Assembly: GCF_018977255.1 (NCBI RefSeq)
Contig: NW_024704742.1
Span: 620,001 to 684,000 of the forward strand
Source of the DNA: Callorhinchus milii
Taxonomy: Eukaryota
DNA: 64,000 nucleotides
Reading direction: 5' to 3'
The notes beneath the pieces are model-generated. The model did not search any database and was not told the DNA's origin. It saw only the letters and a list, made by a program, of their open reading frames with translations. The translations under genes were made by a program, and so were the position numbers. Positions within the stretch are counted from its first letter, which is position 1, and every line of letters starts with the position of its first letter. This document shows, in pieces, positions 18,306 to 58,798 of this stretch.

Positions 18306-18672
18306 GTGGAATCCTGTAACTCAGTGGTTGGAGCACTCGCCTCGCAAACGAGAGACCAGGGTTCGATGCCCGACAGGGCGAAACATTCGGCAAGTTTCCT
18401 TATTCCACACGGCTGTCTACCCAGCAGCAAGTAGGAACCCGATTATTAGTCGATTGGTGGATCGCTTTTCCGGGGATAATAATTCCTTCAAAAAAATTTA
18501 TAATAAATTGGTCACTCAATGCACAACTGTGTGTGGGGACGCTGCTGTGCACAATTGGCTGCCGCATTTCAGACACAAAATATACAGTCAATTCACTTTA
18601 CAGTATATTCTGTGAAGTGCTTTGAGAGACGTCTAGACATAAGGCATTATATCAAATGCAAGGATTATTATT
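18306..18672 (+). mobile_element. SINE family A, full length
   Basis: Colinear with 7570-7946. Confidence 0.85.
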
Positions 18673-19344
18673 AGTTTTATTATTTATCGCTGGCATTATA
18701 GTCAACCTGTTGTGGAACCTGCATTTGGTGAGTACAGGATAATAATAATTATCATAATCCTTGCATTTGATACAGCACGTATCAGGTTATTCATACGTCT
18801 CAAAGCGCTTCACAGAATATACTGTAAAGTGGATTGGCTGTATATTTTGTGAGTGATGAGGTTTGGCTTTGATGCCTCCTTTTGTTTCCTGATGCCTGAA
18901 GTCGTTGTCTGGTATAGAACAAGGCTTTAAAGACCAGCATTGCAGGTTCAGCGAGTTCTGTTAGTTAGCTGACCTCTGTGTATTGGTGTTGACCTCAGCT
19001 GGGACTGTGGTTGGGATAATACATTGGCTCTTTGTGCTCCTGAGTTAAGAGGAAATTGGCCAATGTTGCTTTGCACCATACAAGGTGTGCTACATGGTGA
19101 TGTGCTGACCTCTGCCAATGGTGCTCTGAGGTGCGTGTGAAATCCAGACACACACCGTGGGGGAGAGGGTGATGGAGAGGGATTCCCTTTAGATGTGGGA
19201 AGCAGTTTGATTTTGCTCCTCAATATATTCTGATGCTCCAAACATCCTGCGTTGTTGTACATCCTGATTGTCAGGAAGTTTTAATAATAACTGTTCATAA
19301 GTTACAGCTCTTGATCCAGGTGACAAAGCAATAAAACCAGTCCA

Positions 19345-19590
19345 GCTCAAAGGCTCTTCAAGGGACATCTTGGAGGGGACCTTATAGAAGTATATAAGGT
19401 GCTGGATCAAATTCGGAAAGTCAATCCAGAACAATATTACCAGCTACACCAAGGCCGCAGCCAAGAGGACATGGGTTCAGGGCTTTGGAGGGCAATTTCA
19501 GGACAAGCCAATGTGTATATTTACACCAATTTAACAATGGGTAGGAGTTTCAAGGAAAGATTGTGGACACACGAACACGGGATGTCTCAG
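19345..19590 (+). mobile_element. CR1-type LINE ORF2 C-terminal fragment
   Basis: Translates GDLIEVYKVLDQIRKVNPEQYYQL, then a frameshifted RGHGF. Confidence 0.7.
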
Positions 19591-20219
19591 TGAACATGAT
19601 AAGGCACTGTATGAACGGATATGCAAGGATTATTATTATTATAGATACTTCTGCTGTAAATCCAGAGCTCTGCTGTGCATGCTGTATAAAGGGTACACTG
19701 TGTTGCATGTGGGATGAATTTCGTGGTGCGTTGAGGATGTCAGCTTGTGCTGACATTCTTCCAACTTGGCTGTTTGAGGTTCAAAATGCCATGGAAGGAA
19801 ATAGTAACCAGTAGTGTTTGTGTCCAGGACCATTGAGAAGCAGTAAACAAGAAACAGGATCCAAGGATGAAAACACATAATGAAGCAGATTATGCAGAGA
19901 AGGTGGTGTGTGTTTTATTTTTTACCCTTGGATTTTGAGAACTATTCCAGGTCAACTGGCAGGCACCCTAGCGCTCCTTCCTTACACTCCAGCACACCCA
20001 TTTCTGCGGGTCTGTAAGGTTTACCACGTGCTTATAAGACGAACTCTCCCGTTGTAAGTAAACACCAGTAAGGTCAATTTAACTTCACCCCCTCCCCAAC
20101 ACGACTCTGACACTGCTGCTTGGCACTTCAAGTGAGGGTCTCTATTAGAGTGGCCTGGATTGATCGTTCCCACATTGGGCCAAGTAATGAAACTGCAGCT
20201 CTCCATGTGGGAAACCGAA

Positions 20220-20612
20220 CAGTGAAGCTGGCTTGAACTCCAGGCTGATACCCTAATGCAATGCTGGGGGTGCGCTGCATTGTTGGGAGGTGACGTTCTT
20301 TGAACAAGATGTTAAATCGTTGTCCTATCTGCCTGTTCAGGTGGATGTTAAAGGTCCCATGGCACTATTCGAAAAGAAAAGAGAGTTTCTCTCTCCTGGT
20401 GTCCTGATCTACAATCCCTCAAGTAATAAAAAAATTGGTCGCTCACTTCATGGATTTTTATGGGATGTTACTGTGTGCAAATTGGTGGCCACATTCACCT
20501 ACAAATTACAAAATCACTACCCTTCACAGCAAAAACATTTTCTTTCCTGTAAAGCGCTTTGAGACATCTCGGTGATGTGATAAGGTGCCGTTTCAAATAC
20601 AAGAATTATTAC
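20220..20612 (+). mobile_element. SINE family B (DeuSINE-like), 5' degraded
   Basis: GTTAAAGGTCCCATGGCACTATTCGAAAAGA and the shared tail. Confidence 0.8.
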
Positions 20613-20847
20613 TGTACTGACAGCACCAGTGGATCGATGCGTCAATTCAGAGGGACAGCTGAGCTTATCCTAAAGGTCACAGTGTGGTGTGTGGGGAGAG
20701 GGAGGCCAAGACAACACTGCGGGTGAATCATGAGCATGTGATCGATACAAACTGAATGACTTGTGTATAGTTTTATATCTTCACCTCTTGTACTTTTCCC
20801 CAGGCGGTAAAAGAGACTAATCCTGTATTCTTTCATCACTGTTTCAG

Positions 20848-21036
20848 AAACAGACGACAGATGAATGCTTCTTCCACGAACGGCTGGAGCCAAACAACTA
20901 CAACACGTATCGCTCAAAGAAATATGACAACTGGTATGTTGCTCTCAAAAGGTCTGGACAATACAAGCCTGGACCAAAAACTGGACTGGGACAGAAAGCC
21001 ATTCTCTTTCTCCCGATGTCTGCTAAATGCTCGTAG
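20848..21036 (+). CDS. FGF2: Fibroblast growth factor 2, terminal coding exon 3
   Basis: tttcag|AAA CAG ACG...TGC TCG TAG. Translates KQTTDECFFHERLEPNNYNTYRSKKYDNWYVALKRSGQYKPGPKTGLGQKAILFLPMSAKCS*, the FGF2 C-terminus. This frame is not in the ORF track because it has no start codon. Confidence 0.97.
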   Translation, partial: KQTTDECFFHERLEPNNYNTYRSKKYDNWYVALKRSGQYKPGPKTGLGQKAILFLPMSAKCS

Positions 21037-21981
21037 TCATTTGCTTCCAGCCGTCACCTTTTACCTTAAAGAATCGGAGGAAATGTGACTTGTTCGGAAA
21101 CCAAATTTTTGATGACTTTTTTTTGCTGCAAAAGCCATCAATGTGCATGGTATTTTGTCACTACGCTCTCAAAAGTTGTATTACAGCTATTTATCCTGTA
21201 ATACACCAACTGTTGTGCAATATCACGCTTCTATCAAATGTGACTTTGTAAGTCATCCCATCTTTCGGATTCCCACACTCGTCTTGCTCAATGTCAGTGT
21301 TGAAAAGCACCTTGTGTACAATATGCAACTAAATATATACTGTGGTGAATCAGTAATTCACTCATTTAACAAAACTGTATAACATAAATACAGGAAGGTA
21401 CAGTTGATGCTGTGTGATACAGTACTTTACTTATCAAGTGAAGGCAAACAAGCTTTATTCAGTAAGACACGAGCTCTTTGAACCTGAAGCAGTTATTTTA
21501 ATCTGTCCATCTGTGAACAGAACCAAATGGTATCTTGTGTTTTGAGGTCCAACCATAGGTTTTCCAATCTCGGGTTAAGAAAACTTCAATTCCTATTTTT
21601 TTTATTCAGTAAAAAGTCACTGATTCATTGCACTACGTGGGGCATGTGGGGGAATGTGTAACTCAATGAAATGTGCGTAACTGGCAGAGAAACAGTAGGT
21701 TTGAGCAAAAAAAAAAGAAGGATTCCTCTTGTTCAAATTGGGGGTATCGACCAACAAATATCAAGCGATTAGATAGAGAAACAAAGAGCAATAATTTCTG
21801 ACATTATTGACTAAAACACAATAGTACATGTGGAGAAAATTACTGAACTCTAGTGTCTTCATATACATTGCGTTTCTGAACACCATGTAGTTGTTTCTCT
21901 CCTACCCCAACAATATCACATCAAGAATATGCCGACATCTTAAAAGAAGGGAAGCTGAACACGATGTAATAGCTGCTTTCA

Positions 21982-21987
21982 TTTATT
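21982..21987 (-). terminator. Nearest canonical polyadenylation signal (AATAAA) for NUDT6
   Basis: TTTATT on + strand about 800 nt beyond the NUDT6 stop. Further copies at 21601-21606 and 21454-21459. Confidence 0.45.
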
Positions 21988-22786
21988 GGCACTATCCAAC
22001 TATTGAAAGCAGTGACGGCCAAAAACAAACCAGAGTGGGTTTGAGATGATACTGTTTCAGCAAGATGCATCTCTGCTTGTTAACCAATCTTTCTCCAAGG
22101 GTACAGAGGTGCCACAAGCCAGGGGCGGGCTGAAAATCTCTACAAATGTATTTTTTAGACAAATGAGTACATTCGTAATTCTAATCCCGTTTCATTATTG
22201 TTCTTCGTTACAAGGTCTATGGTTGGATATGTACATTTGCGATTGATAGTGTGGAGGACTCATCATTTATCATGAGGTTGGGGAAATGCAGTATTGTTTA
22301 AGACCACCAAATACTGCGTTGGGAACCCTGAGAATTGGATACATTGCATAATATGTGCAGAGACCTTGACCCTGGACAAATTAACATTGCACGCCTGAAT
22401 CTTGTTGGCGAAATTGGAATCTGAAATGCCGCACACAGCATTGAAAACCTGGAACACTGCCAACAAATCGGATGTGTGTCACAATGACCCGTGCAGCAGG
22501 CGTCTTATTCAATCTCCTCCTGCGATCAGAATTCCTGGGGCATGGCGTGATGCAGATCTGGTTAGCAGCAGGATTTAGCATTTGCAATCTTTAAGAGCAT
22601 TTCATTCCAGAAACATACAGTCAATTCGCTTTACAGTATATTCTGTGAAGAGCTTTGAGGCGTCTTCAAGACGTGATTAGGCTCCAGATCAAATGCAAGG
22701 GATTATTATTATTCGACTCGGAACGATTCTCGTTTGCCTAGACATGGGTGGGTGGAAAAAAAATCTTGGCCACATTCTTCCAAAAC

Positions 22787-23190
22787 CTATTTCAATGGCT
22801 CTTGCTTCAGCCGCTCATAAGTCTCTGGCAATTCCTTGTGATAGAGTTTGTAGAGAAGGCCAGTGTAAACTGCTGGAAACTCTCTCACGGTTAGGTCAAT
22901 TTTCTCAAAGCCTTCCCTGTATCCATAGAAGAGCAGCCTGGCCACCCTGTTGGTTATAAGTGTGGTGCTCCGGGACCTGACCAGCTCCTCCAGATCCACC
23001 CATTCGCACCGCACGCATTCTTCCTGGCAAAAGTCGATGTCAAATGTCACCGGTGTCAGACGGCAAACAATGTACATGTCGGACTTGCCGAAGGCCCCCG
23101 GGTGATTGTGCTGCTGGCGAATGCTTAAAAGCGACTTGAACTCTGTCTTTACTCCAGTCTCTTCAAAGACTTCTCGGACAGCAGTCTCTC
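22787..23190 (-). CDS. NUDT6: Nudix hydrolase 6, terminal exon 5 (404 nt incl. stop)
   Basis: ttgcag|GA GAG ACT GCT GTC CGA GAA. Translates (G)[44 protein letters not shown]...[21 protein letters not shown], including the second half of the Nudix box. Confidence 0.96.
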
Positions 23191-23263
23191 CTGCAAGCGC
23201 AATCGTCAGCCAAATTTAACTTTTATGTGGACGTGAAGCATTTTGCCAAAGGTAGTGTACAGC

Positions 23264-23269
23264 AATAAA
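23264..23269 (+). terminator. First canonical AATAAA downstream of the FGF2 stop
   Basis: No canonical AATAAA seen on + between 21036 and here. It lies just beyond NUDT6 exon 5. Others at 25726 and 25792, ATTAAA at 27649 and 27673. Confidence 0.4.
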
Positions 23270-23404
23270 ATTGGCAGGTATCCCATTCAACTTTATAGAG
23301 TCATTCTAGAAATATAGGATTAACATCTACAGATCCAGTCCTCGGAGGTGTGAGCATGATTCCCACCATCTTCACCCTTGCCACTCCCATTTTGTTTTGC
23401 GGGC

Positions 23405-23645
23405 CGGAGCCCCAAAATTCCACCCAGCCTTAGTGCGTTAGGACCTTTTCGTCTTTTAAGATTGAACAGAATTGTGGAAAATTCTTAAAATTCAGTCTCA
23501 ATTTGGAAGTTGGCTTTCCGCACTTCTTAAAAACGAACCGGCTTCCAAATCAAGTCTCAATTTAAGGATTTTACACGATTCTGTGCACAGTCTTGTTTCG
23601 AAATAATAATGGCCTTGGAGGCTAAGAAGTGGAATTTTGGATCTC
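23405..23645. mobile_element. MITE-like imperfect palindrome
   Basis: Outer arms CCAAAATTCCAC..CTTAG / CTAAGAAGTGGAATTTTGG. Inner arms of about 55 nt: AAGATTGAACAGAATTGTGGAAAATTCTTAAAATT..TTTGGAAGTTGG / CCGGCTTCCAAAT..AATTTAAGGATTTTACACGATTCTGTGCACAGTCTT. Confidence 0.6.
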
Positions 23646-26327
23646 ATCTGAAGTTTTTTAAAAAAAAATACAATTTAATTTCACCGAATTCTTGTCAAAA
23701 CCATTAAAAAGTACAATTTACAGGATATCCGATCCCAATTAATGCGATCGCTTGAGGCCCTTCGTGCAGTGCTGGGTGGTTTTGTGTTTCCTCTTCTCAG
23801 CCCCACCGAGACTATTAAGTTCACTCTTATTTTTAACAATTAGTGAACACAGAAGGAATGAGCCACAATTTCAAGATCACTGCATGATTTAAAGAGTTCC
23901 TTATCTCATGAAACCAAATTGTTTCTTTAACTTTCCGCTACAGACAGACCTGTAGTAGGTCTTGCAACCGTTGTGGGACACTGCTGTACGCAATTGGCTG
24001 CTGTGTTTTGTCCTCAAATTACACAGCCAATTCACTTTACAGTGTATCCTGTGAAGCGCTTTGAGACGTTTCAACGACGTGATAAGGCGCTGGGTCAAAT
24101 GCGCGTGTTATTGTAAGGATTTTATTATCGTATAAATGTGGCCGCTGAGTCAGGGCAACACGCTCAGGAACCAATGCTCCTCATCACCGAGCTATAAACG
24201 TGGCTGATGTGGATGAACTGGCATCTTGCCAAACCCTGTTTTAAAAACTGGTAAATTTGTGTGCCCCCCCAAAAAAACAACACAACAACCCAACAAAAAC
24301 AACATGGTTTCTACATTGAATCATTATGCCAGGGAGGAGAGAGAGAGAGAGAGAGAGAAAAAACTGAATGATGGTTCACACATTGAAGCCCTCCCATCTG
24401 AGCCCAGAGGTTGCACAGCAGTTGTTGTTTGATGGGTTAGTTCCTATTTGGTGGGTTAGTTCACATGAGTTGCCAGTACCTGACTTGTCTCCACTGTCAC
24501 CTTATTAATGCTGGAGACAGTAAGATCACAGCAATCCAAACCCTGTAGCCCTGGTCGGAAGCGAGAACCTTCGAAGATGACATGAAAACGAGTCGTGCAG
24601 GTTCAAGTATGTGTTTCACACAAACTATTGCCATTGAGAGTAATGAAATGATGTGGAGATGAAAATTATTCTGGATTGTTCTATTCATTAATAAGGATGT
24701 TTAAAGAGAGAGAGAGAGAGAGAGATTGGCGAAGGTAATAGTCAGGGGGTATGGTGGAACAGGCTTGATGGTCTGATTTCTGTCCCTGCTTTCCTATGTT
24801 TCGCGTGCCGTTAAAATTGCAGCCTGCCTACATCAGAGGGTTGGCTAAGTTAAATGACTCTTCATTAATCTACTTATCTCGAGCTTGTCTTTCCATTCAC
24901 TTTTCAGCATTATCCCTGCTGTACTGGTGATAAAGCATATTTTGAAGTTCAATCGGCCTGTGTCCAGTCGCTACGTAAGACAGTTCATCCAAACCGTCTC
25001 TAAGCAAACCATTCCCAGTTTGCAGCTCGGTATTTGAAATGTTTCGGACAGGCCCTGATGCTAACTGTTTTAATACGATAGACTCTCAGCTAAACCACAG
25101 AGAACTCTTGTGTTTCCCCTCTTGGGGCAGTAAATGGTCTCTTCTGTACAGTAACACTGTAAATTATCAGCCAAAGCGAATATTTACATTAACATCCAGA
25201 GGTAAATCTGAAAAACAGCTCTAGCTTTATGATGATAATGGCATCCACACAGCGTCCGTATCTCCCAAATTAAGCCCTAGAAAGGACACGGCTGGAATAA
25301 TTAGACTGCACCTGAAACCATTTTGTAATTACCCAGTGTGTTCTCCCGAGGACACATTTGACGAGGAGTTCAAATCGACCTTTTGAGGAGAAAAAAATAA
25401 GGGAATTATAAAGTTCCGACTCTCGGTTGGCATTGTCGTTCTGAAAATCCTTAAGGTTTTTATTTGAATCGAAGTCAAAGCAAACTTCCCGATCTGCAAA
25501 ATCTGCTGAATAAGACTGAGCTTGAGGAGTCATCTACAACAACAACAACAACAAAATAACACTTGTATAGCGCCTTTCATGTTGGGAGGACGTCCCTTTC
25601 AGCATTAAAATAGTAGAATAGTGTGCAACAGATATTCCACTAATGTATGGCAAATAGCAATGCATACAACAAAAACATAAATGCAACATATGGCTTAAAT
25701 CCTTTGTTTCAAAACAAGTTTTCCCAATAAATACAAACCGATGATATTTCTGCTATTTATTTTTAAACAAGAATGTATCAAGAGAGAGAAAAATAAATCC
25801 CCAGACTTGCATTTTATCAGATACTTTTTGTTTAAACAGCATCGGCAAATGTGTTCCTACGTAACGGTTTCATATTGGAATTTTTCCTATCAACCAACTG
25901 AGTTTTCATATACTTCTAAACATTGAATTTGACAAACTGTGCCTTTTCTAAGCACCCATATATATATATATATATATAAAATGTATTTTTTATCTGGTAC
26001 TAAGATTTCTTATTCTTACTCTCTCATGTAAATAGTTCAGTGCGGAAGGATCAAATGTTTATTTTTTAAATATAATTGGTGAATTCTAACACACTGGTCT
26101 CAAACCGGATCTGCAATTTGTTTTACTGGAGAAAGTGGTTAAAACGGCGACCAATATGCTGATGCCACACTGAGAGAAAAGTTCAAACGGAAAGAAATTG
26201 TCATAGTGAATGAAAACAAAATGTACATTTTGAGATTTTTAATCATTTTTTGATTTTTTTTATATATATATATTATATATTATATACGTCGATAGTTGAT
26301 TATAAGTCGAGGAGGATCATGGTATAA

Positions 26328-26762
26328 TGTCAGCCTGGCTCAGTTGGTAGCATTCTTACCACTAAGTGAAAAGGTTGTGGGTTTACCTACTTTGGGGCTT
26401 TGAGCTCACAGTTCACTGACACTGCAGTGGTCAGGGGAAGTGCTGCGCTGTGGGACGTGTCGTCCTTCTGATAAGACGTTAAACTGAGATCTCGTCCCCC
26501 TTGTTCGGGAGGACGTTAAAGATCCCGCGGCACTATTCGAAAAGAGAAGGGAGTTTGTCCCCGGTGTCCTGGCCAACAATCCCAGACAAAATTAGTCACT
26601 CACTTGCTGGCTGACCGTGGGACAACGCTGGGCGCAAATCGGCTGCCGTGTTCTTCTACAGTCACTACACTTTACAGTAAAATCCTGTGAAGCGCTTTAA
26701 GATGTTTTGATGACATAAGGCGCTATTATCAAATCCACGGATGATGATTATTATTTATTATT
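26328..26762 (+). mobile_element. SINE family B (DeuSINE-like), full length
   Basis: A box TGGCTCAGTTGG, full Deu domain, (ATT)n tail ending 70 nt from NUDT6 exon 4. Confidence 0.85.
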
Positions 26763-26831
26763 TTAGTCGAGTTCTAGGCTGACACATTGTTCATTTAAAG
26801 CTGTTTTATTTATATATGTACTTTTACTTAC

Positions 26832-26886
26832 CAATATCTTCCCCTGGGTCGGACAAACCTCCTGGAAACTTCCAAGCATTCTTTGC
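26832..26886 (-). CDS. NUDT6: NUDT6 exon 4 (55 nt)
   Basis: ttaaag|GCA AAG AAT GCT TGG AAG TTT CCA GGA GGT TTG TCC GAC CCA GGG GAA GAT ATT G|gtaagt = AKNAWKFPGGLSDPGEDI(G), the first half of the Nudix box Gx5Ex7REUxEExGU. Confidence 0.95.
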
Positions 26887-29800
26887 CTTTAAAAGTAATA
26901 ATGGTATAAAGTGCAAGTCACTTAAAAGTAAAACGTTAAAACTGTTAAATGTGATAGAAGAAACTGCTTGTTGCCTTATTTTGTTAAAGTTTTGAAAAAA
27001 CTGCAGTAAAGCTTTTGTGTTTAAAAAGAAAAAAGAAATTGTGGCTCTGTTAATTTTAGACTAAGCAGATTAAGCAGCTGCAATGGGGCCTTAACATGGC
27101 ATTCATTCTATATATTAAACAAAACGTATGTGAAATGGTGAAAGTGTTTCATTCTACTGACGCTCCAGGAGCAAATGAAATGGTGATGTGTTTTTGAGAT
27201 CGGCAAAAGGGACGTTGTTTCCTCTTTTATAAAGAAACATTGACAATGCTGCTAGTTAAATAAGAGAGTAGGGAGAATAGAGAAGTTGATTTATTATGAA
27301 TCAAGCTGCTATGTTTAGAAATCTGTACAGACCTGCAGTATGGTTATATTCATACCAATGCATTCTTATTAGTTTTCAATAGTGGCCTTTTGTTTTGAAC
27401 TGTGTTGGTGTGTTGATGTTCTCCGGTGAAACAAATTGGCATTTGTAGTACTGTACTGTATTGTATTGGGTTAAACGTTGTCCTGCTATTAACTTGGTAT
27501 GTTGCTAAATAGTCAGATATTGTTACCTTACTTCTGTATCAAATCAAAACCAGTAAACAATGTTTTTTTAAAAATATATATATATATATCATTGTGGAAT
27601 GGTGAATCTTTTGTGTAGTGTCTTGTCTGTGCAACCAAGGAAGCATGTATTAAAATATCTAATGTTTGCACAATTAAAATCAATACATGTGTATCTCCAT
27701 TATTGGTGTCTAAATAGGACTGGAAGTAAATGCCTATTTAACCGACATGGAATTTAACGGTTTAACTGTGGACAGGGAATTTCACAATCACATTCACTTG
27801 TTTGAAAATCCCAAAGTCCAGGTTACCTCATGCAATTAAACAGTCAATCGGGGGTGAGTCAGATCAATCATTTGGGCTGCTCAGTCAATCATTGCTATCT
27901 TCTCCCTATCGTAATGACTGCAGATGACCAAACAACAACTTGCAATTCGTACAGCGCCCTTCACTCAGGAGAGCATCTCAGAGCACTTACACTGCTGTGG
28001 TGCGACAATACAGTGCAAACAATTATACAATCACACACAGGACAAATGTGATCCATCCTTCAGAGTGGACTCACACAGTTTACTACACAGTACAGTAACT
28101 TTGTGAAGAACTTTGAGATGTTTGATAAGGTGCTTTATCAAATGCAAGTATTGGTATTATTGTACACCCATCCAACACGTACACCCATCCAACACACACC
28201 CGCACAAAAGGACTGAAAACAGAATACCTCTGTTAATTCCACAGTGTAAAATGAATGTAAGGGGTCATTTCCAATACAGGGAACATGTGTTGGCCTACAG
28301 GGATCTTGGTTTCATGGCAAACAATCTTTCACCAGCCCACAACTGCTGGACTGCAATCATTTCCAGGTAACAATCCTCCACTGTATGAGAACAGCTGTGT
28401 TTTTTTCAGGAAGGGTTATCCTGGCCAACATGGTGTGGAGTCAATGGCCTGTCATACTCTACTGTTACAGGCTGAGGCCGGTGGCACCTGTTGTAACTGG
28501 CTTTGCAATCAACAGACCCACTCTGCCTTGGGCCTGTTGCTTGTTTTTATGAAAAGCAGTTACAATTGTCACAACACACAGACGCTAGATTTTAAAGGAC
28601 AAGGATAAGTAGCAAATAACCACTGCATGCTGTCAGATATATCTTCACGAGTGGAGTGGCTCGACAACATCACTTGAGGGGAGAGAACACACTCTCCGCC
28701 AATTCTGGGTAATCTAAAAATCTGCCCAGGTGAGGGGTTAAGAAATACTTAGCGTAAGAAGCACATTTCTAAATTTTGTATATATATATATATATATACA
28801 CACACACATACATTCAGGGGCTATGAGTTAAGACCATACTTTGAAGACTATGGATCATGAAACTCGCTGGAACTGCTCCCAGTTCACTGAAGGGCCTTGA
28901 GTGCAATACACTTTCCATTACACACACAGCAGCAGCAGCTTCAACAAGAGATGAAAACTTAAGCAACATGGCTATGATTTCATGACTCCGGCAATTTACT
29001 TGTGCTTATGTTAACATTGCTAACTTAGCTCTGAAGTGAGATTATTTTATGTATGTATGTATGTATGTGTGTTTGTGTCTCTGCTTAAGAGTAATTACTG
29101 AGATTGAACCATGGAGAGCTGAGGCTGAGTTTCTCGCACTGAATTCAAGAAACCAGGGATTTGCGTCAAACTGGGGTGGGTGGAGCAGGCGGGGGGTGGG
29201 GGTTAGTTCTTAAGCAGTAATATGAGAAGGGCCCGTCTCAAGACCTTCCTCTTTCACCGTGGCTTCGGTCATCCTCCCACCCCTCCTACCCCCTCACCCC
29301 TCTTGATCCCTTGACTGTCCATCACCTTGCAACATCCCCTTGATGCGAACGGCGCTGTATAAATGCAATTTGTTTGTTGTTTGTTTGCTACATTTGCATC
29401 CATCGGTGGGGACGGGGAGGGGGTCGGCAAAAAAACCACACAATGACTTGACTCCTAAACCCACCGGTTCTGCACGCAGCACACAGCCCCCTCCCTCTCT
29501 GCCCTGCCCTGCGTGTGTGCCTGGACTGTGTGCCAGCTCCATAACGCACACTGCTCTTTCTTGGCTCTCTTCGCTGGCCCAGGGCTGAGAATAATTTAGT
29601 TGCTGCTTCGTCGGCAGCAGCTCGAAACTGCAGCGAAGCGACCTGACGGCGAACTATGAACAAGTTTGCGCTGAGCGGATTGCGATTGGAATAACAGCGC
29701 TCCAGGGTTTCCTCCTCAACAAGCGCTGCAAAATGTGTGTATGTGTGGCCAGGTCCTAGCAATAATGGGTCGGGTTCCTGTTCACTGCAATGCACCGAGT

Positions 29801-31914
29801 GAGTGACGTGAGCGAGTAAGAGTGTGCGTTTGGGTGGGTGGCTGGGGTGGGTGAGCTCCTCACTAATACACTGGAGCCAGCTGCTCAGCTTATCTTTGGC
29901 TACAAACCTTCAGCAGCTCCACACGCACACACGCACACACGATACACGTACACACACCGCCTTAGCAGAGTTTCTTCACTTCACAGAGAGAAAGTACCTC
30001 TCGGAGCCCTGGACCACACTGTCAAACCGGTGTGTCATTTATCTCTACCTATGGTCACAGGAATATGAGTTTTTTTCAAAAAAAAATTCTATCCAGTATA
30101 TAGTCTTAAGGAATCATGTTAGCTGAGTACTTGTTGCGTCCAGAAAGCAGAATCTATCTTCAAGTGCCTGCCAAAAAGCTCCGTGTGACTTGCCAAACTG
30201 TCCGAGACATACGGGGGCCCAACCTAGTGAGGTTGAGAGCAGTCTGACAAGACTGAAAAAATATATTGTTTAATGCCTTTTACTTCCCAACAGTAGGTGC
30301 CTGTGTCCTTGGCTCCCTCACTCTCGCCCTCTTTCCTTGATGGTGACAGGAAATAATAAAATGCAGGACTCTTGTGAATAACCTCTTTCACAATCTTCAT
30401 TAACATACCTTCCTGAACAGTACAGGCCTTGAGGTGTATCGGGCTTCTGGTTTCACTTCAGGGCAGCAATCTGGAGGTTGGTACGACTGGAAAGTTACCC
30501 AGTGACAAATTACTTTTGAACCTCGCCTCTGGCAACGGAAAGCCTGCACTCAATTACCTCAATGATGTTGTTGACAAACTCTTCAGAAATGACTTCCATA
30601 CTTTTAATCAATAAGTAGGGTCTGCCTCAGGTTGCACAAAGCTCCTGCTGTCATCTTGTCTCCTGACATGTCAAGGAAATAGCAATTTTTCTAAAAAAAA
30701 ATCCCTATTTAGTTCATTTGACTTTTCCTCTCTCTCTCGCGCTCTCTCTGTCTTTCCTTAATGGTGACAGAAAATCTCTTGCCTCTTGTTGATTAAAGTC
30801 CCGAGATCGTGGGCAAGGCTGGCACTCCAGTGCCTGTGTGTTTGAGGTGCCGTCCATCAGATGAGAAGCTAAACCAAGGTCCCGTCTGCCTATTCAGGTG
30901 GAATTTAAAGATCTCAAAAAGAAAAGGGAGTTTCTCCCGGTGTCCTGGTCAACAATCCGCCAAGTAAGATTGATCATTCACCTTATGACTGTTTGTGGGT
31001 GATATTGCTGTGTGATAATTTGCTACCATGTACACCTAAAAGGTACACAGTCACTTCAATAATTACTGTGAAGGGTTTTGAGATTTTTTGTGGTGTCTCT
31101 CTTGCAAGCACACACACACACCTCTCCTTTGGCCTCTCTCACACACAAATCTTTCTCTCTCTCTCTCTCTCTCTCTCACAAACAAATATGTGTAAAGTAG
31201 GGGATGGCGAGAAGCCCATTACAAAATTACGGCTATAAAGTAAACTTTGTTATAGCACGTCAAGTCTCCAGCAAATGTAAAAGTAAATCTTGATCTCCTC
31301 CTGAGGAGTTGATGAGGATTTTTCATCATTTTGATAATGAGGTGGATGTTGGACTAACACAGTCCCAGCCCAATGCTGTGACACTGCACAGAGCCCAGTC
31401 TGACGTGTGTACACAAGAAGGCCAGTGAGTTTTAATGGCAGGACACAACAGCACTGACTTGTGGTTTGGTCGCTGAGTGCTTGCGTTTCCTTTTTAACTG
31501 ATTGTTTCTCTTTCCTTTCCCCTTGTTACTACAACTTATGATTTGGATCAAAAAGTGGAGGGAGCGGAAGTAATAAATAATAATATTTGTATTTGATACA
31601 AAGAGCCGCATTGAAAATTGTCAAAACACTTGAGACAATGAGTTACAGTACTTTATACATTTGATATAGGGCCTTATCACATTGAATCATCTTCTGTGAG
31701 CTTCACAGAGTCTTCTGTAAAGAGTGTGTATTTATAGGCAAATGTCCCAGAAACAGTCATGAAGTGATTGAGCAATTTTTTATTTGGGGGATTGTTGGCC
31801 AGGGCACTAGGGGAAACTCCGAACAGTGTCATGGGATCTTTAACGTCCACTTTTGAACAGTTAGATGGATTCTTGGTAACTTCGATAATGTATCATTCTG
31901 CCAGCACAACATTC

Positions 31915-32300
31915 AACAACAACATCAACAACTTACACTTGTCTAGCACCCTCCAATGGAGGGCAGCGTCTCAGAGCGCTTAACAATGGCGGAGGCTGAC
32001 TCGGGTGGTGGGGGGGGGGGGGGTGACCGTAAGCACCAGTCGAGGAGGAAGATCTTCAAGCGGGAGCCCTTGAAAAAGAAGAGAGAGGGGGCAAGGCGGA
32101 GGGATTGAGGGAGAGTGTTCCAGAGTTTCGGGGCGTAGGGGCTGAAGGCACGACCTCCGATGGTGGGGCGGAGGGTGCGAGGGAGAGCAGGAGCCGGGGC
32201 CAGTCGAGCGGAGGCACCGGGTGGTGGAGTGGGGAGTCAGGAGGTCGGAGAGGGAGGGAGGGGTGAAGGGATTTGAATACGAGAGCGAGCAGCAGACCAA
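31915..32300 (-). mobile_element. L2-type LINE 3' end with (GTT)n tail
   Basis: Minus-strand frame RTLRPTIGGRAFSPYAPKLWNTLPQSLRLAPSL (L2 ORF2 C-terminal motif), then the AAGCGCTCTGAGACGC...GTTGTTG tail. Relatives at about 29210-29380(+), 36640-36960(-), 38185-38560(-), 39420-39680(-), 43690-43830(-) and 59510-59750(-). Confidence 0.8.
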
Positions 32301-33347
32301 CAGTAGAAAAAAAACTCAAATGCTTTCTGCAGGAGAGGAGGGAGGGGAGGAAAGTGCAAAATAAAAACAAGGTCACCTTAACTTGTCCAGACAGTTCAGC
32401 CCTAAATACCTGCTGACTTTAAATCTGCAGAGAGACAGACAAAGTCATATGTGAACTATGGCAAGTTTTCCACAAGCAGTTTCCTCTGTTTCACAAACTC
32501 TATATCTAAAGACATCAAGCGGCATATGCAGCCCCCAGTGGCACGTAACCTTTTGGTTAATACACTACCTGTAATTTGTTTTAAGTGAGTTTAGATGTGC
32601 AAAAAAATGACAACAGTTTCAACAAACACATTGCATGGGTGAGGGGAGGTGGGGGAGGGGGTTTAATGCAGTAAGTGGTGTGATACTTATCACTGGAGAT
32701 AATAAAACTGCCAAATTATTAAAAACTCCATTCCTCTCCCACTGCCCCCGTTTCTGGAGACAAGAAATTCGCTGTGTGAGAAATAGTGGCTTTTAGTCTC
32801 AGTTCTTACAAGATGTTTTTATGTCTTTCTGAAGTTCTCCGCAGCAAGATGTCAGGAATGAGCAGGATCAAGATCCTAAGCTGGTAATAGCTGTTAAAAG
32901 AGTTCCTTGGAAAAGTCCCTGTAACCTCCTACATGTTGAGCGTGTTTTACAGTGTGTCACTGACACAAACAACTGTGATTTGATTTCCATTAATGTCCAC
33001 AAGCTTCAAATAAAATTAAATATTCATAAAAAGTAACAGTGAACAGGACCTCGGTTTAATGTCTCATCCAAAGGACGGCACCTCTGACAATGATACCCCC
33101 CCCCCCACCCCACCACCACCACTGCTACATCGAAGTGTCATCTTAGACTACGTGAGTTCAAGTTCTGACATGGGATTTGAACCCACAGCCTTCTGACTAC
33201 AGTGCAGTAGTACATATGCAGTATTTAGAGGCCTTCCCTGATGAACAGGTATTGACAGATCACTGTATGATTGTGTTACTTGGTTGATGTTTTGCCAGCA
33301 ACGACTAGGTGATGTTTTTATCAAATGCCACTCGAGCATCAACTCAC

Positions 33348-33403
33348 CTTGTTCTTGTCCTGCACAACCAGAACTTTACCATTGGCTTCATCCAACACAG
33401 CAC
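33348..33403 (-). CDS. NUDT6: NUDT6 exon 3 (56 nt)
   Basis: tgtag|GT GCT GTG TTG GAT GAA GCC AAT GGT AAA GTT CTG GTT GTG CAG GAC AAG AAC AAG|gtgagt = (G)AVLDEANGKVLVVQDKNK. Phases fit exons 2 and 4. Confidence 0.94.
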
Positions 33404-33724
33404 CTACACAGTGAACGGCAAACAAGAAAGAGAATGTTCCTGGTGGTATAACACACACATTCCTGCCATCAATAAGATCAAATCACGATGTATAGTCCCT
33501 ATAGTTTGGTGTAGCATCGATTGACTGCCACAAATTGCATTTAGAACTACTTCTGAAGAGGGTGTTACAATCTAGCTCAGTCACTCTGGGCCAGGGTTTT
33601 TGACCCTAGACTTCAATCATTGACCTGCTGGAAAATATGTGTTCCATTCCTCCCCCCATGAGCCTGCTTACTGTCTAGACTTAGACAGTATTGGAGAGCC
33701 CTGGCACTGCTTAAAGTGGACAAT

Positions 33725-34002
33725 TGGCAAAAGAATCAGAGGGGAGATAAGGAGAATTTTTTTTAACGTAGCGAGTTATTACGAACTGGAATACGCTGCC
33801 TGAAAGGGTGGTGGAAGCACGTTCAATAATAACTTTCAAAAGGGAATTGGATGCTTACCTGAAAATAAACAATTTGCAAGGATATTGGGAGAACAAACAG
33901 GGGAGTGGGACTAATTGGATAGCTCTTTCAAAGAGCCAGCACAAGCATAATGGGCTGAATGGCCTCAGTCTGTGTTGTAAAATAATAATAAGATTCTATG
34001 AT
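33725..34002 (+). mobile_element. CR1-type LINE 3' end fragment
   Basis: Translates RVITNWNTLPERVVEARSIITFKRELDAYL with an upstream in-frame stop, then a GGGCTGAATGGCCT 3'UTR. Confidence 0.8.
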
Positions 34003-42355: not shown

Positions 42356-42559
42356 CCGCTACTCCGACTTGATGCGTGGCACGTGGAGGAAGCCTGCTCT
42401 GCCCCTGAGCCAGCCACAGGGCCAGGGTGGAACAGTCCTTTTCTGCACGGTGAAAGGTGAAGCCCTCAGCAGCTGCTGCAGCTATAAACCTGCTCTGGAG
42501 AATGGGCACACGCAGCCAGACGGCCACCCTCCCTTCTGCTCTCCAACGCTCCAGCGAAT
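42356..42559 (-). CDS. NUDT6: NUDT6 exon 2 (204 nt)
   Basis: ttgcag|AT TCG CTG...GTA GCG G|gtgagc = (D)[67 protein letters not shown](G), the pre-Nudix N-terminal domain of NUDT6. Confidence 0.95.
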
Positions 42560-43641: not shown

Positions 43642-44045
43642 TGTCCAGAAAAAAAACGAAGCAAGAGGGTAAGAGAGGCAACAGGCGAGGGCTCGGGCAA
43701 AGGGGTTGTTTTTAAGTTGGAGTTTGAAAGCAGGGAGAGAGTGGGGGATACGGTGATGTGGAAGGGTTTCAGCGGAGAGTTCCAGAGAGTGGAGGCAAAG
43801 AGGCCGATGGTGGCGCAGAGAGGACAGAGATTGCCATTTGACCGAACACATTTATTTCACTGAGGGCCCCTTTCGGCTGCAGGAGAGCAAAGAGCTGTAT
43901 CCCAGCAGTCTGCTATCTGGATCCAATCCATGTCCCAGAGGTGGGAGGGCAGTGCGCTAACGTGCGCTGCCACACAGCTTCACAAAGTGAAAAACAAAAC
44001 CAGGAGTGGGTGAAACATACAGTATTCAGGCAGATCAATATTCAG

Positions 44046-45515
44046 CTCACACCTCACACACACTCACACTCACACACACACACCTCACACACACTCACAC
44101 ACTCACACACTCACACACACACTCACACACTCACACACANCGCTCACACACACACTCACACACACGCTCACACACACATACACACATACACACTCACACA
44201 CATACACACTCACACACACGCTCACACACACACTCACACACACACACACTCACACTCACTCACACACCTCACACACACTCACACTCACACACACACACCT
44301 CACACACACTCACACTCACACACTCACACACTCACACGCTCACACACACTCACACACACTCACACTCACACACTCACACACTCACACACACCTCACACAC
44401 ACTCACACACTCACACACACACGCTCACACACTCACACACACACACACTCACACACACGCTCACACTCACACACTCACACACACGCTCACACATACACAC
44501 ATACACACACACACACTCACTCACACACACACACACACACACTCACACACACACACACATACTCACACACACACACACACACATACATACACACACTCAC
44601 ACACGCTCACACACACACACACTCACACACACACACTCACACGCTCAAACACACACACACACGCTCAAACACACATACACACACACTCACTCACACACAC
44701 ACACGCACACACACACACACGCTCAAACACACACACACACACACACACACGCTCAAACACACACACACACGCTCAAACACACACACACACACACACATGC
44801 TCAAACACACACACACACTCAAACACACACACACACACGCTCAAACACACATACACACGCTCAAACACACACACACACTCACACACACACACACACACAC
44901 GCTCAAACACACACACACTCAAACACACACACACACGCTCAAACACACACACACTCAAACACACACACACACACGCACACACACACACACGCACACACAA
45001 ACACACACACACTCAAACACACACACACGCTCAAACACACACACACACACGCTCAAACACACACACACACACTCAAACACACACACACACGCTCAAACAC
45101 ACACACACACGCTCAAACACACACGTGCTCAAACACACACACACTCAAACACACATACACACGCTCAAACACACACACACACTCACACACACACACACAC
45201 GCTCAAACACACACACGCTCAAACACACACACACACGCTCAAACACACACACACACGCTCAAACACACACGTGCTCAAACACACACACACTCAAACACAC
45301 ACACACACGCACACACACACACACGCACACCCATGCTCAAACACACACACACTCAAACACACACACACGCTCAAACACACACACACACGCTCAAACACAC
45401 ACACACACACTCAAACACACACACACACGCTCAAACACACACTCAAACACACACACGCTCAAACACACACACTCAAACACACACTCAAAAACACACACAC
45501 TCAAACACACACGCA
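44046..45515. repeat. Compound (CA)n-based array with CT / GCTCAAA interruptions; contains an N at 44140
   Basis: Read directly; produces the spurious His/Thr ORFs. Confidence 0.97.
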
Positions 45516-46973
45516 CTCGGACAGCCACGCACTCGGACAACAGCCACGCGCACACACTCCAGCACACGTCACTCAGTGTGTTCCCCCTCTCAATCAACTT
45601 TCATCCCAACTGCGTTGACATAAGCGTTTCAGGAAGAGACTGAAGAATTCTATCAAAGCTGCTAACTCCAGGTCAGTAAACAAGTAAATCATAAGCTGGG
45701 GGTTAGCAGGCGGTCTGACAAAGTGCTTGGCTCACAAACCAAACTGGTGACCCGAGGAGTGATAAATGAGTGGAATCTTTGCACCTTAGTGCTGTATTGA
45801 GGTTGTAGTTTTCAAATGCTGATCACGAAAATACAGTCCTTGGTTTGGAAGAAAACTGTCGATTAAAAACCGAACTGTTATTTGTGCTTAAGTTGCTTCT
45901 GTGTGTAATCCTCATGCTGTGAATTAACATTAACCCAGTGTTCAACTGAGGCGAGACCTGAGTTAATATTCAGCAGTTTAACTGTTTATCTTAAAGAGTT
46001 GATGCATTTATTAGTTGGGTTCATCAGGTGGATGGTAACGATTCCACGGCACTGTCGCAAAAGAGAAGGGAGTTTCTCCCGGTGTTAGTGCTGTTTGTGG
46101 GATGTTGCTATGTGTAAATTGGTGCCATGAACACCTACAAACCATTACAGCCACTACACTCCACAAAAAAACCGTGAAGCACTTTGATGCATCTTCCCAC
46201 CATGGAGGACGCAATGAAAATGATTCACACTATTGACGACACAACGTGCATCGCCAACGGACTTCCGATTAAAAATCGCCCATTTCACGGAGGTAAGATT
46301 AATAAATCTAAAATGAATGTTATAGCCTTTATTCTAATGAACGTTGCACTTAAATAAAAACAATTTGCCTTTTCACTAGTGTGAATATTATGACCCATAC
46401 CTTCTGCCGCAAGAAATAAGAAGTATCATATATTCATGATACAAACTGAAATCTATGCTCATGCGCTATACATTTGGGGGAAATTGTGGTAATCCATATT
46501 ACCAGAGATCGGCTCCAGGGGTCACACATGAAAAGCAACTTGACAGATAGAAGATTAACAACAACTTTTATTCGTATGGACTGTTTGTGGGACAATGCTG
46601 TGCCCGATTGGCACAAAATATACAGTCAATTCACTTCACAGTGTACTCTGTGCAGCGTTTTGAGACGTCTCGAAGACGTGACAACAAGGACGATTATGGA
46701 AGTATATCTGTGCGCTTGTTTTAAAACAAAAGTATTTGCAGGCAAATGTCCCACAAAAGGCGTGAGGTGAATTAATAATTCTCCGATTAATCTGGAGAAT
46801 TATCGCCTGGGACACTGGTAAACTCCTTTCTCTTTCCGATGAGCGCCCTGGGATCTTTGACATCCACCCGAAACAGGCGCACGGGACTGTGGTTGAGAAT
46901 AATGACGATTAATGTCCTGGTGTGAGGGGAAGACAGCGGGTAGATCGGCGGGTAATTCACCGCCATTACTTGC

Positions 46974-47208
46974 CATGCAGGAGTTTCTGGAAGGAGCGTA
47001 GGTCGAGTTGCCGTGGGAGGTCTTGGTGGTCGAGATGCACAGTGATGGCCCCAAAGCGGTCCGTCCTGGCTGTGCTGAAGATGCTGCCGGATCCTTGAAG
47101 GCAGCCACGGCGTCTCCAGGTCCCGCCAGCCCGGGCTGGAGTTCCACAGGCCCTAACACCCCCCCCGCTCCACAGTGCCAGCCTCGCGCGCAGCATGGCC
47201 ACAGGCAT
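46974..47208 (-). CDS. NUDT6: NUDT6 coding exon 1 (ATG at 47208, alternative in-frame ATG at 47196), GC donor
   Basis: MPVAMLRARLALWSGGGVRACGTPARAGGTWRRRGCL...TDRFGAITVHL...LDLRSFQKLLH, similar to human DRFGGISVRL...AAAFQKGLQ. The Arg-rich, acid-free N-terminus resembles a mitochondrial presequence. Ends CAT G|gcaagt. Total CDS 235+204+56+55+404=954 nt. Confidence 0.85.
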
Positions 47209-47280
47209 CCCCCCCCCACTCCACGGAACAGCCGAGCGGCACAAGCAGCAACGCAAAGGGGGCACAGCGACAAGGAGCGC

Positions 47281-47331
47281 GGCCAAGCTGGCAGATCCGG
47301 CCAAGCTGGCAGATCCGGCCAAGCTGGCAGA
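47281..47331. repeat. 18-bp tandem repeat GGCCAAGCTGGCAGATCC x about 2.8
   Basis: Read directly; lies just upstream of the NUDT6 ATG. Confidence 0.9.
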
Positions 47332-48494
47332 AGCCTGATCCGGATATCTCGTAGGATCGCCGCCCGGCCGTCACGCGTCTGCCCACGTTCCGTTCGGGAG
47401 TTTATCTTCCGACGCGAGTTTGACGTGACTCGCGCTCTGCAGAAGTCGCTGCGACACCTCCGGTCCCAACCGATGCGACTTAAGGCGAGGCTCACAGTGC
47501 AGTGCAGGTCGGCAAACTCGCACAGCAGGAACCCGCCTCGAAACGGCAACAGCACCGGAGGAGGACGGGGAAACACGAGCGCAGACTCTCGCGTGCGCAC
47601 GCGCGCACACGCACACACACACACGCGTGCGCGCGCGCACACACAGCAGGAACAGCAACAACACCCAGAGCGAAACAGAGAGAGCCGCTCCACACAGACA
47701 CCCAGACCGCAAACAGCAACGCAAAGAGCACAGACAACAGCAACACAAAGAGCGCAGACAACCGCTCCGCGGCCACAGCAGAGGGAGCAGCAGGGCAATA
47801 GCACAGTACCGGGAGCAGCAGCAGGCAGGCCTGAGCCTCAGCGCAGAGCCGCCCCCACCCCCCCCCTCCCTCGGGCTGTTGTAACCCGAGGCTGTGGGTA
47901 GGTCTGCGAGCAGAAGCTTCACCACTCCACACCGCACCGGGGAGGCTGGGGCTGGGGCTGGGGGGTGGTGGCCCAGCACAGCACAGCACAGCACAGAGAC
48001 TGGTGGCAAACGAGGGATAATAACCGTGAGGCAGGAGAAGCGGCCTCTAAAGTGATTTGGTGTTTCACAATAGGAGTCAGCAAATGGTTAACGCTAACCT
48101 TGTCTGCCTGTCGCTCCCGATGATTGACACTTGCTCCGAGCCTCTCACACACTCCCGGCCACGGACACTGTTTTGAGAACCCATGTAGCCCTCAAAGGGG
48201 GAAAAAAAACACTGATAAATGGGTAACTTCAATCCACGGCTGTTTGTGTGTGTGTGTGGGGGTGTGTGCGGGGGGGGTGGGGTGGGGGGGGACACCGCTG
48301 TGCGCAATCGGCTGCTGCATTTCGCCGACAAAATATACAGTCCATTCACTTTACAGTCTATCCTGTGGAGCGCTTTGAGACGTCTCGACGACGTGATAAG
48401 GCGCTGCATCAAATGCGAGGATTTATTATCATTCAAATCTATATGCTGCAGCGACATATACGCGTGTGCACTGCATATAACATATAATAAGAGC

Positions 48495-48810: not shown

Positions 48811-49302
48811 TGTTACACATATATATTATAATATAATGTAATGTAATGTAGCCGTGTGTGGTACGGCACAGGCCGGTGTGCAGGCAGGAGGCCGGGCATG
48901 GCCCGGGGCTGCTGTTTGGTGGAGTTTGGGCTACAAAGTGGGTTTTTGGGGGGTCCGGAAATCGCAGTACCATTTTGTAGCCCAACACGAGCCCAAAAAG
49001 TAGCCCAACGTTCCGCCTGTGTCCTGCGGTGAGGGTCGCGGGGTGTGGTGTTGGGGGTGTAACACACTCACACACACACTCACACACTGCGGGGGCTTCC
49101 GCGGGTTCCTGTGGGGACACCAGAACATTTGCGGCCCCGAAGCAGTTTTTTTTTCCCGTTTTTTAAAAAAAAGTCATTATTTATAACCCAATAACCCGCC
49201 CCGACGGCAGAGAGAGAGCGCAGCGCAGCGCAGCGGAGCGGAGCGGAGCGGAGCGGAGCCGCCCATTCCCCTCTGACAGGGAAGGGCATCACAGCACATG
49301 TG

Positions 49303-50171
49303 GGGACACACACACACACACACACAGATAGGGACACACACACACACACACAGGGACACACACACACAGGGACACACACATAGATAGGGACACACACACA
49401 CACACACAGGGACACACACACACACACACAGGGACACACACACACACACACACAGGGACACACACACACACACACAGGGACACACACACACAGGGACACA
49501 CACACACACACACACACACAGACACACAGGGACACACACACACACACACACATAGATAGGGACACACACACACACATAGATAGGGACACACACACACACA
49601 CAGGGACACACACACACACATAATAGGGACACACATAGAGACACACACACACACAGGGACACACACACACACACACAGGGACACACACACACACAGGGAC
49701 ACACACACACACACACAGGGACACACACACACACAGGGACACACACACACACACAGGGACACACACACACACACAGGGACACACACACACACACACAGGG
49801 ACACACACACACACACACACAGGGACACACACACACACACACAGGGACACACACACACATAGATAGGGACACACACACACAGGGACACACACACACAGGG
49901 ACACACACACACAGGGACACACAGGGACACACACACACACACACACAGGGACACACACACACACACATAGATAGGGACACACACACACACACACAGGGAC
50001 ACACACACACACACACACAGATAGGGACACACACACACACAGGGACACACACACACACACACAGGGACACACAGGGACACACACACACACACAGGGACAC
50101 ACACACACACAGGACACACACACACACACAGGGACACACACACACACACAGGGACACACACACACACACAC

Positions 50172-50217
<46 letters not shown>

Positions 50218-50331
50218 GGACACACACACACAGGGACACACACAGAGGGACACACACACACATAGATAGGGACACACACACACAGGGACACACACACACA
50301 CACAGGGACACACACACACACACACATAGAT

Positions 50332-50362
<31 letters not shown>

Positions 50363-50433
50363 GGGACACACACACACACACACAGGGACACACACACACA
50401 CAGGAACACACACACACAGGGACACACACACAC

Positions 50434-50464
<31 letters not shown>

Positions 50465-51463: not shown

Positions 51464-51489
51464 GGGCGAGGCTGGGCTTTAATTAAACC

Positions 51490-51670
51490 ATGTCCTCCAA
51501 AAAGAAGAGCAAGTGCAAAGCTGGCAGGAGCCAGGAGGAGAGCAGCCAGAGCCAACGCTCCCCGCTCAGGGCGGGGGGTGCAGGAGGAGGGGAGGGTGGG
51601 GAGGGGGCAGCTAACAGCCCCCAGCCACCCTCCTGCCTCTCGCTCACCGTGGCTGACATCCTGCTCCAGG
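51490..51670 (+). CDS. SPATA5: SPATA5/AFG2A AAA-ATPase coding exon 1
   Basis: accATG with an in-frame TAA just upstream. MSSKKKSKCK...LSLTVADILLQ G|gtaagt; human starts MSSKKNRKR...TLTVTNLLEK. Confidence 0.88.
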
Positions 51671-51711
51671 GTAAGTCAAGTAACTCGGCTCCTGTTCACC
51701 CCTTCGAGCCG

Positions 51712-55393: not shown

Positions 55394-55547
55394 GTACGAG
55401 TGTGGAGCAGGTGCATAACGAGGGCTTGGCGGGGCAGAAAAAGGGGGTCTTGGGGTCTTTTTTTTTTACGGTCATCCTGGTCTCCTGACACGTCACCGTG
55501 CCTTCAGAGAATCTCAACGGAACTGAGCATTCCACGCGTGTTTTCCC

Positions 55548-56632: not shown

Positions 56633-56785
<153 letters not shown>

Positions 56786-58528: not shown

Positions 58529-58798
<270 letters not shown>

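Follow-up and report, generated by a model that had tools for sequence, protein, structure and literature searches.

Evidence for a probable long FGF2 3′ untranslated region antisense to two NUDT6 exons in the elephant shark

The FGF2/NUDT6 locus

The window analysed here, a stretch of 64,000 nt from the elephant shark Callorhinchus milii (NCBI RefSeq assembly GCF_018977255.1, contig NW_024704742.1, positions 620,001 to 684,000 of the forward strand), carries FGF2 on the plus strand and NUDT6 on the minus strand. The two genes are adjacent and convergent, with 1751 nt between their stop codons. An original prediction, made from the sequence by itself, proposed that the FGF2 mRNA continues as a long 3′ untranslated region (UTR) to position 27690 and thereby runs antisense through two NUDT6 exons. 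Based on gene anatomy, RNA-derived contigs and comparison with other vertebrates, we consider it likely (probability roughly 0.83) that elephant shark FGF2 has a long 3′UTR antisense through NUDT6 exons 5 and 4.

For FGF2, exon 2 (104 nt, 2320–2423) was recognized from its translation and AG/GT ends, and the coding part of exon 3 (20848–21036, including the TAG stop at 21034–21036) from its protein match. The exon 3 product matched the Pfam FGF family, and its best PDB chains were those of FGF2 (E 3e-30 to 1e-28) as against FGF1 at approximately 5e-18 or weaker. These protein matches identify the plus-strand gene as the FGF2 orthologue.

All five exons of the 317-aa C. milii NUDT6 protein were placed in the window by protein match, with edges taken from splice signals. 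In transcript order on the minus strand these are the coding part of exon 1 (46974–47208), exon 2 (42356–42559), exon 3 (33348–33403), exon 4 (55 nt, 26832–26886) and the coding part of exon 5 (22787–23190). Introns 3 and 4 were additionally visible as CT..AC joints in RNA-derived contigs (26885/33347 and 23189/26831, respectively). The exon 5 translation (22790–23188) was identical to C. milii NUDT6 over 133 of 133 aa, with sharks next at 77–83 %, and the protein carries domains PF18290 and PF00293. The Nudix box is intact and agrees with the consensus quoted in PMC2254637; its first half lies on exon 4 and its second half on exon 5, which are the two overlapped exons. The positions originally given for the FGF2 stop (21036), the NUDT6 stop (22787), exon 4 and the start of exon 5 (23190) were all confirmed. 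The NUDT6 3′UTR is predicted to occupy 21965–22786 (minus strand), up to a proximal polyadenylation [poly(A)] signal, AATAAA, at 21987–21982 whose downstream U content is equalled by 24 of 236 hexamer sites. At the other end of the gene, the intron 1 donor following position 46974 is GC instead of GT (46973–46972), and exon 1 lies in a G+C-rich and CpG-rich stretch (47100–47900).

RNA-derived cover beyond the FGF2 stop

Fourteen runs from four studies were available, of which ten were RNA by guess, none was recorded as RNA and four had genome-sized contig sets. Contigs from four of the runs (X1, X4, X7 and X9, from three studies) were placed on 18500–33600. All of these contigs are unstranded, and the cover figures rest on 32 listed contig pieces, with 9512 others beyond these, and are therefore lower bounds. 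Two of the four runs contained the spliced NUDT6 joint of intron 4 (X1 and X4) and two that of intron 3 (X1 and X7), indicating that the runs contain RNA. Their contig sets comprised 25–94 million letters, compared with about 900 million for X11–X14.

Pooled across the four runs, at least 6030 of the 6534 nt in 21037–27570 were covered, across NUDT6 exon 5, intron 4 and exon 4. Cover of intron 4 reached at least 3149 of 3641 nt (at least 2799 nt in X1, 1731 in X4, 1186 in X7 and 676 in X9), and beyond exon 4, in 26887–27570, it reached at least 672 of 684 nt (at least 600 nt in X1, 618 in X4, 249 in X7 and 179 in X9). RNA over the NUDT6 exons, on which the original prediction depended, is thus present across both exons and their flanking introns, in unstranded form.

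The space between the genes was covered likewise. Contig 3 of X1 (20848–23191, 2344 nt) starts exactly at the first base of FGF2 exon 3 and continues through NUDT6 exon 5; it shares 30 nt with an intron-side contig at 20848 and stops at 23191, the point of divergence between spliced and unspliced paths. Given k = 31, both edges would be graph branches at used splice sites. The NUDT6 proximal poly(A) region (21965) was bridged by contigs of X1, X4 and X9, representing three studies, such that RNA, of either strand, is continuous between the genes.

Among the pieces listed, the furthest 3′ was X4 27305–27558, followed by 12 unplaced letters. The long FGF2 3′UTR would therefore extend over about 6.5 kb (21037–27570, presumptively plus strand), with its 3′ end at or beyond 27558 and perhaps as far as about 27700. 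The predicted extent to 27690 thus received RNA-derived cover almost to that point, whereas its exact end did not, the contigs reaching 27558. Depth was 0 in all four runs for the bins 27572–28075, 28580–29083 and 30092–30595, three of the 12 bins beyond 27571 (the other nine have depth, several over repeats), and 1.7, 0, 0 and 0 across the four runs for bin 19004–19507. These bins were used as a control for silent stretches. A depth gap past 27571 would fit an end near the AGTAAA at 27552, but a skipped repeat or a pruned contig tip would look alike, and the gap was not counted as evidence.

Some differences from the window were common to runs of two to three studies, namely a G inserted behind 22121 and changes at 22820, 24804 and 24839. 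These are either common alleles or assembly errors.

Polyadenylation signals and composition of the proposed UTR

The signals listed in the original prediction were present, with the first plus-strand AATAAA past the FGF2 stop at 23264, AGTAAA at 27552 and ATTAAA at 27649 and 27673. The distal stretch was AT-rich as described (67 % A+T in 26887–27570 and 72 % in 27571–27700), and a self-BLAST of the window, which is blind to single-copy repeats, found no interspersed repeat between 26764 and 27930. The candidate distal signal is AGTAAA (27552–27557), with a downstream U content equalled by 17 of 236 hexamer sites, partly owing to a short T/A and (TA)n run at approximately 27562–27590. The two ATTAAA hexamers (27649–27678) are alternative candidates and are collinear with the AATAAA of a bird locus described below, in an alignment that was not significant (z 1.1 and 1.7). 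The clustering of distal hexamers was rejected as evidence, since six AATAAA, ATTAAA or AGTAAA were found in 26887–27700 against 2.9 expected (P = 0.063, 2000 shuffles). The AATAAA at 23264 was likewise rejected as the main FGF2 end, having an ordinary downstream U content (reached by 80 of 236 sites) and contig pieces that run past it.

It had also been argued that even a proximal FGF2 mRNA would cover NUDT6 exon 5, and this did not hold. The interval from the FGF2 stop to the NUDT6 proximal signal at 21987 contains nine variant hexamers (21200, 21328, 21332, 21383, 21387, 21577, 21608, 21665 and 21810), the variants being those that we take to serve as poly(A) signals, so short FGF2 mRNAs could end without any overlap. 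Taken alone, the argument from these signals is weak.

Self-BLAST of the window and repeat families identified an insertion within the UTR at 26328–26763 (plus strand), with further, shorter pieces at 22597–22714, 23965–24134 and 25534–25596 (self-BLAST). We take all of these to resemble short interspersed nuclear elements (SINEs). Eleven pairs of inverted repeats (24–41 nt, 71–88 % identity) were found in the UTR when long hairpins were sought, none of them convincing.

Conservation of the proposed distal UTR

A search with the exon 4 pattern returned six metagenome loci, of which five (L002–L006) had no FGF2 hit and were dropped, leaving L001 as the sole locus for comparison. L001 carries FGF2 exon 3 together with NUDT6 exons 3–5, of which exon 5 shows 97 % identity to bird proteins. 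Its geometry is similar to that of the shark, with an exon 4 of 55 nt in both and an intron 4 of 3562 nt compared with 3641 nt in the shark. An FGF2-strand AATAAA lies 555 nt past exon 4 in the bird, where the shark candidates lie 666–787 nt past it, and the distance between stops is 508 nt in the bird compared with 1751 nt in the shark.

A non-coding block in NUDT6 intron 3 (27242–27475, plus strand) matched L001 7233–7043 with 135 of 184 positions identical (z 7.7, 0 of 300 shuffles). This provides the alignment of the distal stretch to a tetrapod that had been suggested as a check. The block was aligned by local alignment, as MAFFT misaligned it. When 100 windows of 300 nt across 18.5–33.6 kb were compared with the whole of L001, 27200–27499 scored 2657 and was the sole non-exonic window above the wrong-strand maximum of 1967, and four of five control windows gave z values of −1.3 to 0.5. 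No shark–bird similarity was detected in the proximal UTR or the NUDT6 3′UTR, nor at the end of FGF2 intron 2, in the remainder of intron 3 or over most of intron 4. Rfam gave no matches in 18500–34000, and the block has no stable fold (folding z 0.22).

On the FGF2 strand, the block opens in both shark and bird with TGCTGCTA, an 8-mer that matches a miR-15/16/195 site (27247–27254 in the shark, L001 7225 in the bird). Thirteen nucleotides of the shark sequence (27247–27259) are identical to the insert of a human FGF2 3′UTR reporter, in which mutation of the seed abolished repression by miR-195 (PMC8092352). The human site therefore has the same 8-mer and 13 identical nt as the shark on the same strand, and its 8-mer recurs in the bird block. 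Function was demonstrated in human cells only, and the shark site is a predicted one. The motif was chosen with the human site already in mind, so the match is a confirmed lead and not a blind test.

The bird block (z 7.7) and the human 13-mer indicate that the distal UTR is homologous to the tetrapod FGF2 3′UTR, with the exception of the terminal part, for which the alignment was not significant, so that homology leaves the 3′ end unfixed. It is this comparative evidence, the bird block and the plus-strand miR-15/16 8-mer, that points to the FGF2 strand as the source of the distal RNA.

Several further observations were made on the compared loci. NUDT6 intron 4 (23191–26831; L001 7539–11100) is of near-equal length in shark and bird with no detectable sequence similarity. 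The block contains a second exact match of 12 nt (27443–27454, L001 7074–7063), the core of which presumably fits a miR-101 seed site. In L001, the proximal FGF2-strand AATAAA and the NUDT6-strand AATAAA cross (11613 and 11721), which would give even the short isoforms an overlap of about 110 nt in addition to their tails. In L002–L006, where no FGF2 hit was obtained, the NUDT6-like genes have a GT donor at the corresponding position behind the exon 4 motif. This intron position therefore either predates the FGF2 overlap or is unrelated to it.

Proposed mechanism and age of the overlap

The above suggests a model in which the last FGF2 exon, from 20848, would read past the NUDT6 proximal poly(A) signal to give a long mRNA antisense through exon 5, the 3.6-kb intron 4 and exon 4, polyadenylated within NUDT6 intron 3 at approximately 27.57–27.70 kb. 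Complementarity to the spliced NUDT6 mRNA would be confined to two patches of about 1225 nt and 55 nt, jointly encoding the Nudix box. The distal UTR would serve as a post-transcriptional control block through which miR-15/16-family microRNAs may repress the long isoform via the conserved 8-mer, and shorter FGF2 isoforms, ending at weaker upstream signals, would escape this repression. We favour this mechanism because of the human reporter assay and the conservation. With the control block located behind NUDT6 exon 4, moving either gene would damage the other, and the overlap would persist without further reason. A sense–antisense duplex would be possible wherever both RNAs are made.

FGF2 and NUDT6 (also FGF-AS or GFG) are among the first described vertebrate sense–antisense pairs, and the reason for their persistence is unsettled, as knock-down studies disagree. 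A control block with a miR-15/16 site that ties the genes together would be a simpler reason. The convergent pair has been described in Xenopus, chicken, rat and human (PMC2254637 and PMC3899992), and its human–chicken conservation appears in Table 3 of PMC1524920. The shark shares with tetrapods both genes, their tail-to-tail order, the five-exon NUDT6 and, on the proposed model, an FGF2 3′UTR complementary to the NUDT6 mRNA, and the elephant shark locus extends the known pair to cartilaginous fish. It differs in a larger predicted overlap at the last exon, about 1.2 kb compared with the complementarity of >400 nt stated for the pair (PMC3899992), and in the SINE-like insertions of its UTR.

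The layout is the same in the bird locus, and therefore the overlap is probably older than the split between cartilaginous and bony fish, that is, it was present in the first jawed vertebrates. The longest human FGF2 mRNA is likewise said to overlap the last two NUDT6 exons. The original prediction had proposed this age should the DNA prove to be chondrichthyan, and Callorhinchus milii is a holocephalan; contig cover together with bird and human conservation supports the two-exon overlap in this species, with the strand assigned by comparison. A long overlap in a holocephalan would move it back to the base of the jawed vertebrates. In the literature searched, which leaves most subscription journals outside, no paper was on the topic of a cartilaginous-fish FGF2/NUDT6 overlap as judged by title and start of abstract. 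Public C. milii gene models may already draw the long UTR.

Alternative explanations

Several points weigh against a long FGF2 UTR. The cover is unstranded and the RNA status of the runs guessed, no listed piece spans the whole stretch, and a contig across two genes does not prove a single transcript. The exon 5/intron 4 edge is unbridged under a 31-letter rule among the listed pieces, with 29 exon letters in X1 and 19 in X7. In record 10 of X4, 364 nt of intron 3 (from 27250) run unspliced into exon 4, which is in turn spliced to exon 5, as would also be expected from minus-strand RNA starting in intron 3; we infer that it is a graph merge of sense and antisense RNAs sharing exon 4. For conservation, the fifth control window (SINE-like, in intron 4 near exon 5) gave z 3.2 with 4 of 300 shuffles, although its reverse strand scored similarly. 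The stretch from the block to the poly(A) signal is collinear with the bird but not significantly aligned (z 0.1, 1.1 and 1.7 for 27552, 27649 and 27673, respectively), and conservation as a whole rests on one bird locus and one human oligonucleotide whose place in the human UTR was not seen.

The alternative that survives best shares the same anatomy and competes with the proposed mechanism only. The overlap may have been kept for the sake of an FGF2:NUDT6 duplex that undergoes A-to-I editing or is silenced in another way, as has been proposed for Xenopus oocytes, where the sense–antisense duplex was reportedly A-to-I modified. Both RNAs occur in the single run X1, reciprocal knock-down effects have been obtained in rat glioma cells (PMC3899992), and Nudt6 GapmeRs rescue Fgf2 in mice (PMC10277891). 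The literature is conflicting, however: FGF2 levels were unchanged when NUDT6 was raised or lowered in rat hippocampus (bioRxiv 10.1101/2022.09.05.506638), and this counts against the duplex part of the mechanism. The contigs of X1, X4, X7 and X9, which hide rare variants, gave no A-to-I signature over the overlap. In one X4 contig (21197–22640), five of seven differences were A>G or T>C, but these stand at full depth on a single contig and are haplotype-like; the two classes together were not in excess (5 of 24 places in X1, 5 of 15 in X4, 0 of 6 in X7 and 0 of 1 in X9), and within the NUDT6 mRNA overlap one of five differing places was A>G. As a test of editing, contigs are weak in both directions, since they drop rare variants. 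We lean somewhat against the duplex as the purpose of the overlap, and hold it possible, at a little below even odds, that a regulatory FGF2:NUDT6 duplex matters in the elephant shark.

A second alternative would attribute the extra RNA to NUDT6 itself, with intron 4 often retained, a second start in intron 3 at about 27.57 kb, and a long 3′UTR reaching FGF2 exon 3; FGF2 would end early (for example, at AGTAAA 21608) and the conserved block would be a promoter or splicing element. X4 record 10, running from 27250 into exon 4 and spliced to exon 5, fits such RNA, as do a weak pyrimidine tract at the exon 5 acceptor and the variant hexamers before 21965, and a reading frame of 57 open codons precedes exon 4 (P ~0.02). 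That frame has no ATG, though, and its bird counterpart closes after six codons, and a coding 5′ extension of exon 4 was rejected on these grounds. The proposed start stretch has a G+C content of 32 % and 7 CpG, in contrast to the island at exon 1, and of the three cluster members listed for the C. milii protein none starts at exon 4 or 5. A strand-blind graph would itself produce record 10 from a sense UTR and a spliced antisense mRNA that have exon 4 in common, and the conserved motif is a microRNA site on the FGF2 strand, present in the human FGF2 3′UTR. As it also requires three separate assumptions, we consider this alternative unlikely.

Thirdly, the distal RNA could be on the plus strand but separate, as an unannotated long non-coding RNA or a processed UTR fragment unjoined to the FGF2 coding exons. 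The contigs break at microsatellites and SINE-like pieces and none of those listed spans the stretch, as such a transcript would allow. Against this, listed X1 pieces share 30 nt with one another at the NUDT6 splice edges and also overlap at 25567–25592, pieces occur along the whole stretch in all four runs, and PMC8092352 places the corresponding human site in the FGF2 3′UTR. This makes a separate transcript very improbable. Finally, genomic DNA carry-over or unspliced pre-mRNA, with no stable long UTR, would accord with runs that are RNA by guess, with an X1 word share of 0.83 (0.78–0.83 in genome-sized runs) and with X1 and X7 cover of the last 1 kb of FGF2 intron 2, but is highly implausible for contig sets a tenth or less the size of genome-sized ones that hold spliced joints, with all 32 listed pieces confined to 19902–27558 of 18500–33600, and it leaves the conserved block unexplained.

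A candidate long NUDT6 isoform

The contigs in the last kb of FGF2 intron 2 (X1 19902–20353 and 20327–20877; X7 20548–20823) suggest a long NUDT6 isoform antisense to FGF2 coding exon 3. Its candidate 3′UTR extension would occupy 19900–21964 (minus strand, provisionally), through coding exon 3 into intron 2, with an end near AATAAA 19919–19914. The X1 contig stops 12 nt past this minus-strand hexamer. The chance of an AATAAA in a given slot of 21 nt is P ~0.03 (29 such hexamers in 18.4 kb of intron), and among the 236 hexamer sites of the window just 6 have a downstream stretch as U-rich as this one. On the other side, the end is seen in one run only, the contigs are unstranded and a partly retained FGF2 intron 2 would give much the same picture. 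The bird intron has no similarity there, yet it carries a NUDT6-strand AATAAA 744 nt into the intron.

The antisense RNA of Xenopus (Kimelman and Kirschner 1989) is said to cover the coding part of FGF2 exon 3 with its 3′UTR, and the candidate isoform ending at about 19900 would likewise cover it. In the shark this would be a second isoform beside the one ending at about 21965, on a strand assigned provisionally, and no editing was seen in the contigs. Tentatively, and with slightly less than an even chance, the overlap may thus be two-sided, with a long FGF2 UTR over exons 5 and 4 and a NUDT6 isoform that runs antisense to the proximal FGF2 UTR and all of coding exon 3 and is polyadenylated about 950 nt inside FGF2 intron 2. 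In that case, the jawed-vertebrate ancestor would have had a single locus whose two alternative poly(A) sites gave the human/bird-type and the Xenopus-type overlaps, and the geometries of frogs and amniotes would both be variants of it. The poly(A) choice of each gene would set the pairing length, from about 1.3 to about 2.4 kb, with FGF2 coding sequence included.

Neighbouring features

A search for viral contigs gave no matches. Plus-strand exons of an AAA ATPase were found at 54772–60827, with Pfam AAA and AAA_lid_3 matches at 60387–60827. This gene is probably SPATA5, arranged head to head with NUDT6. Long, C/A-rich low-complexity tracts with extreme strand skews occupy 44000–46000 and 49000–52000, and a single N occurs at 44140.

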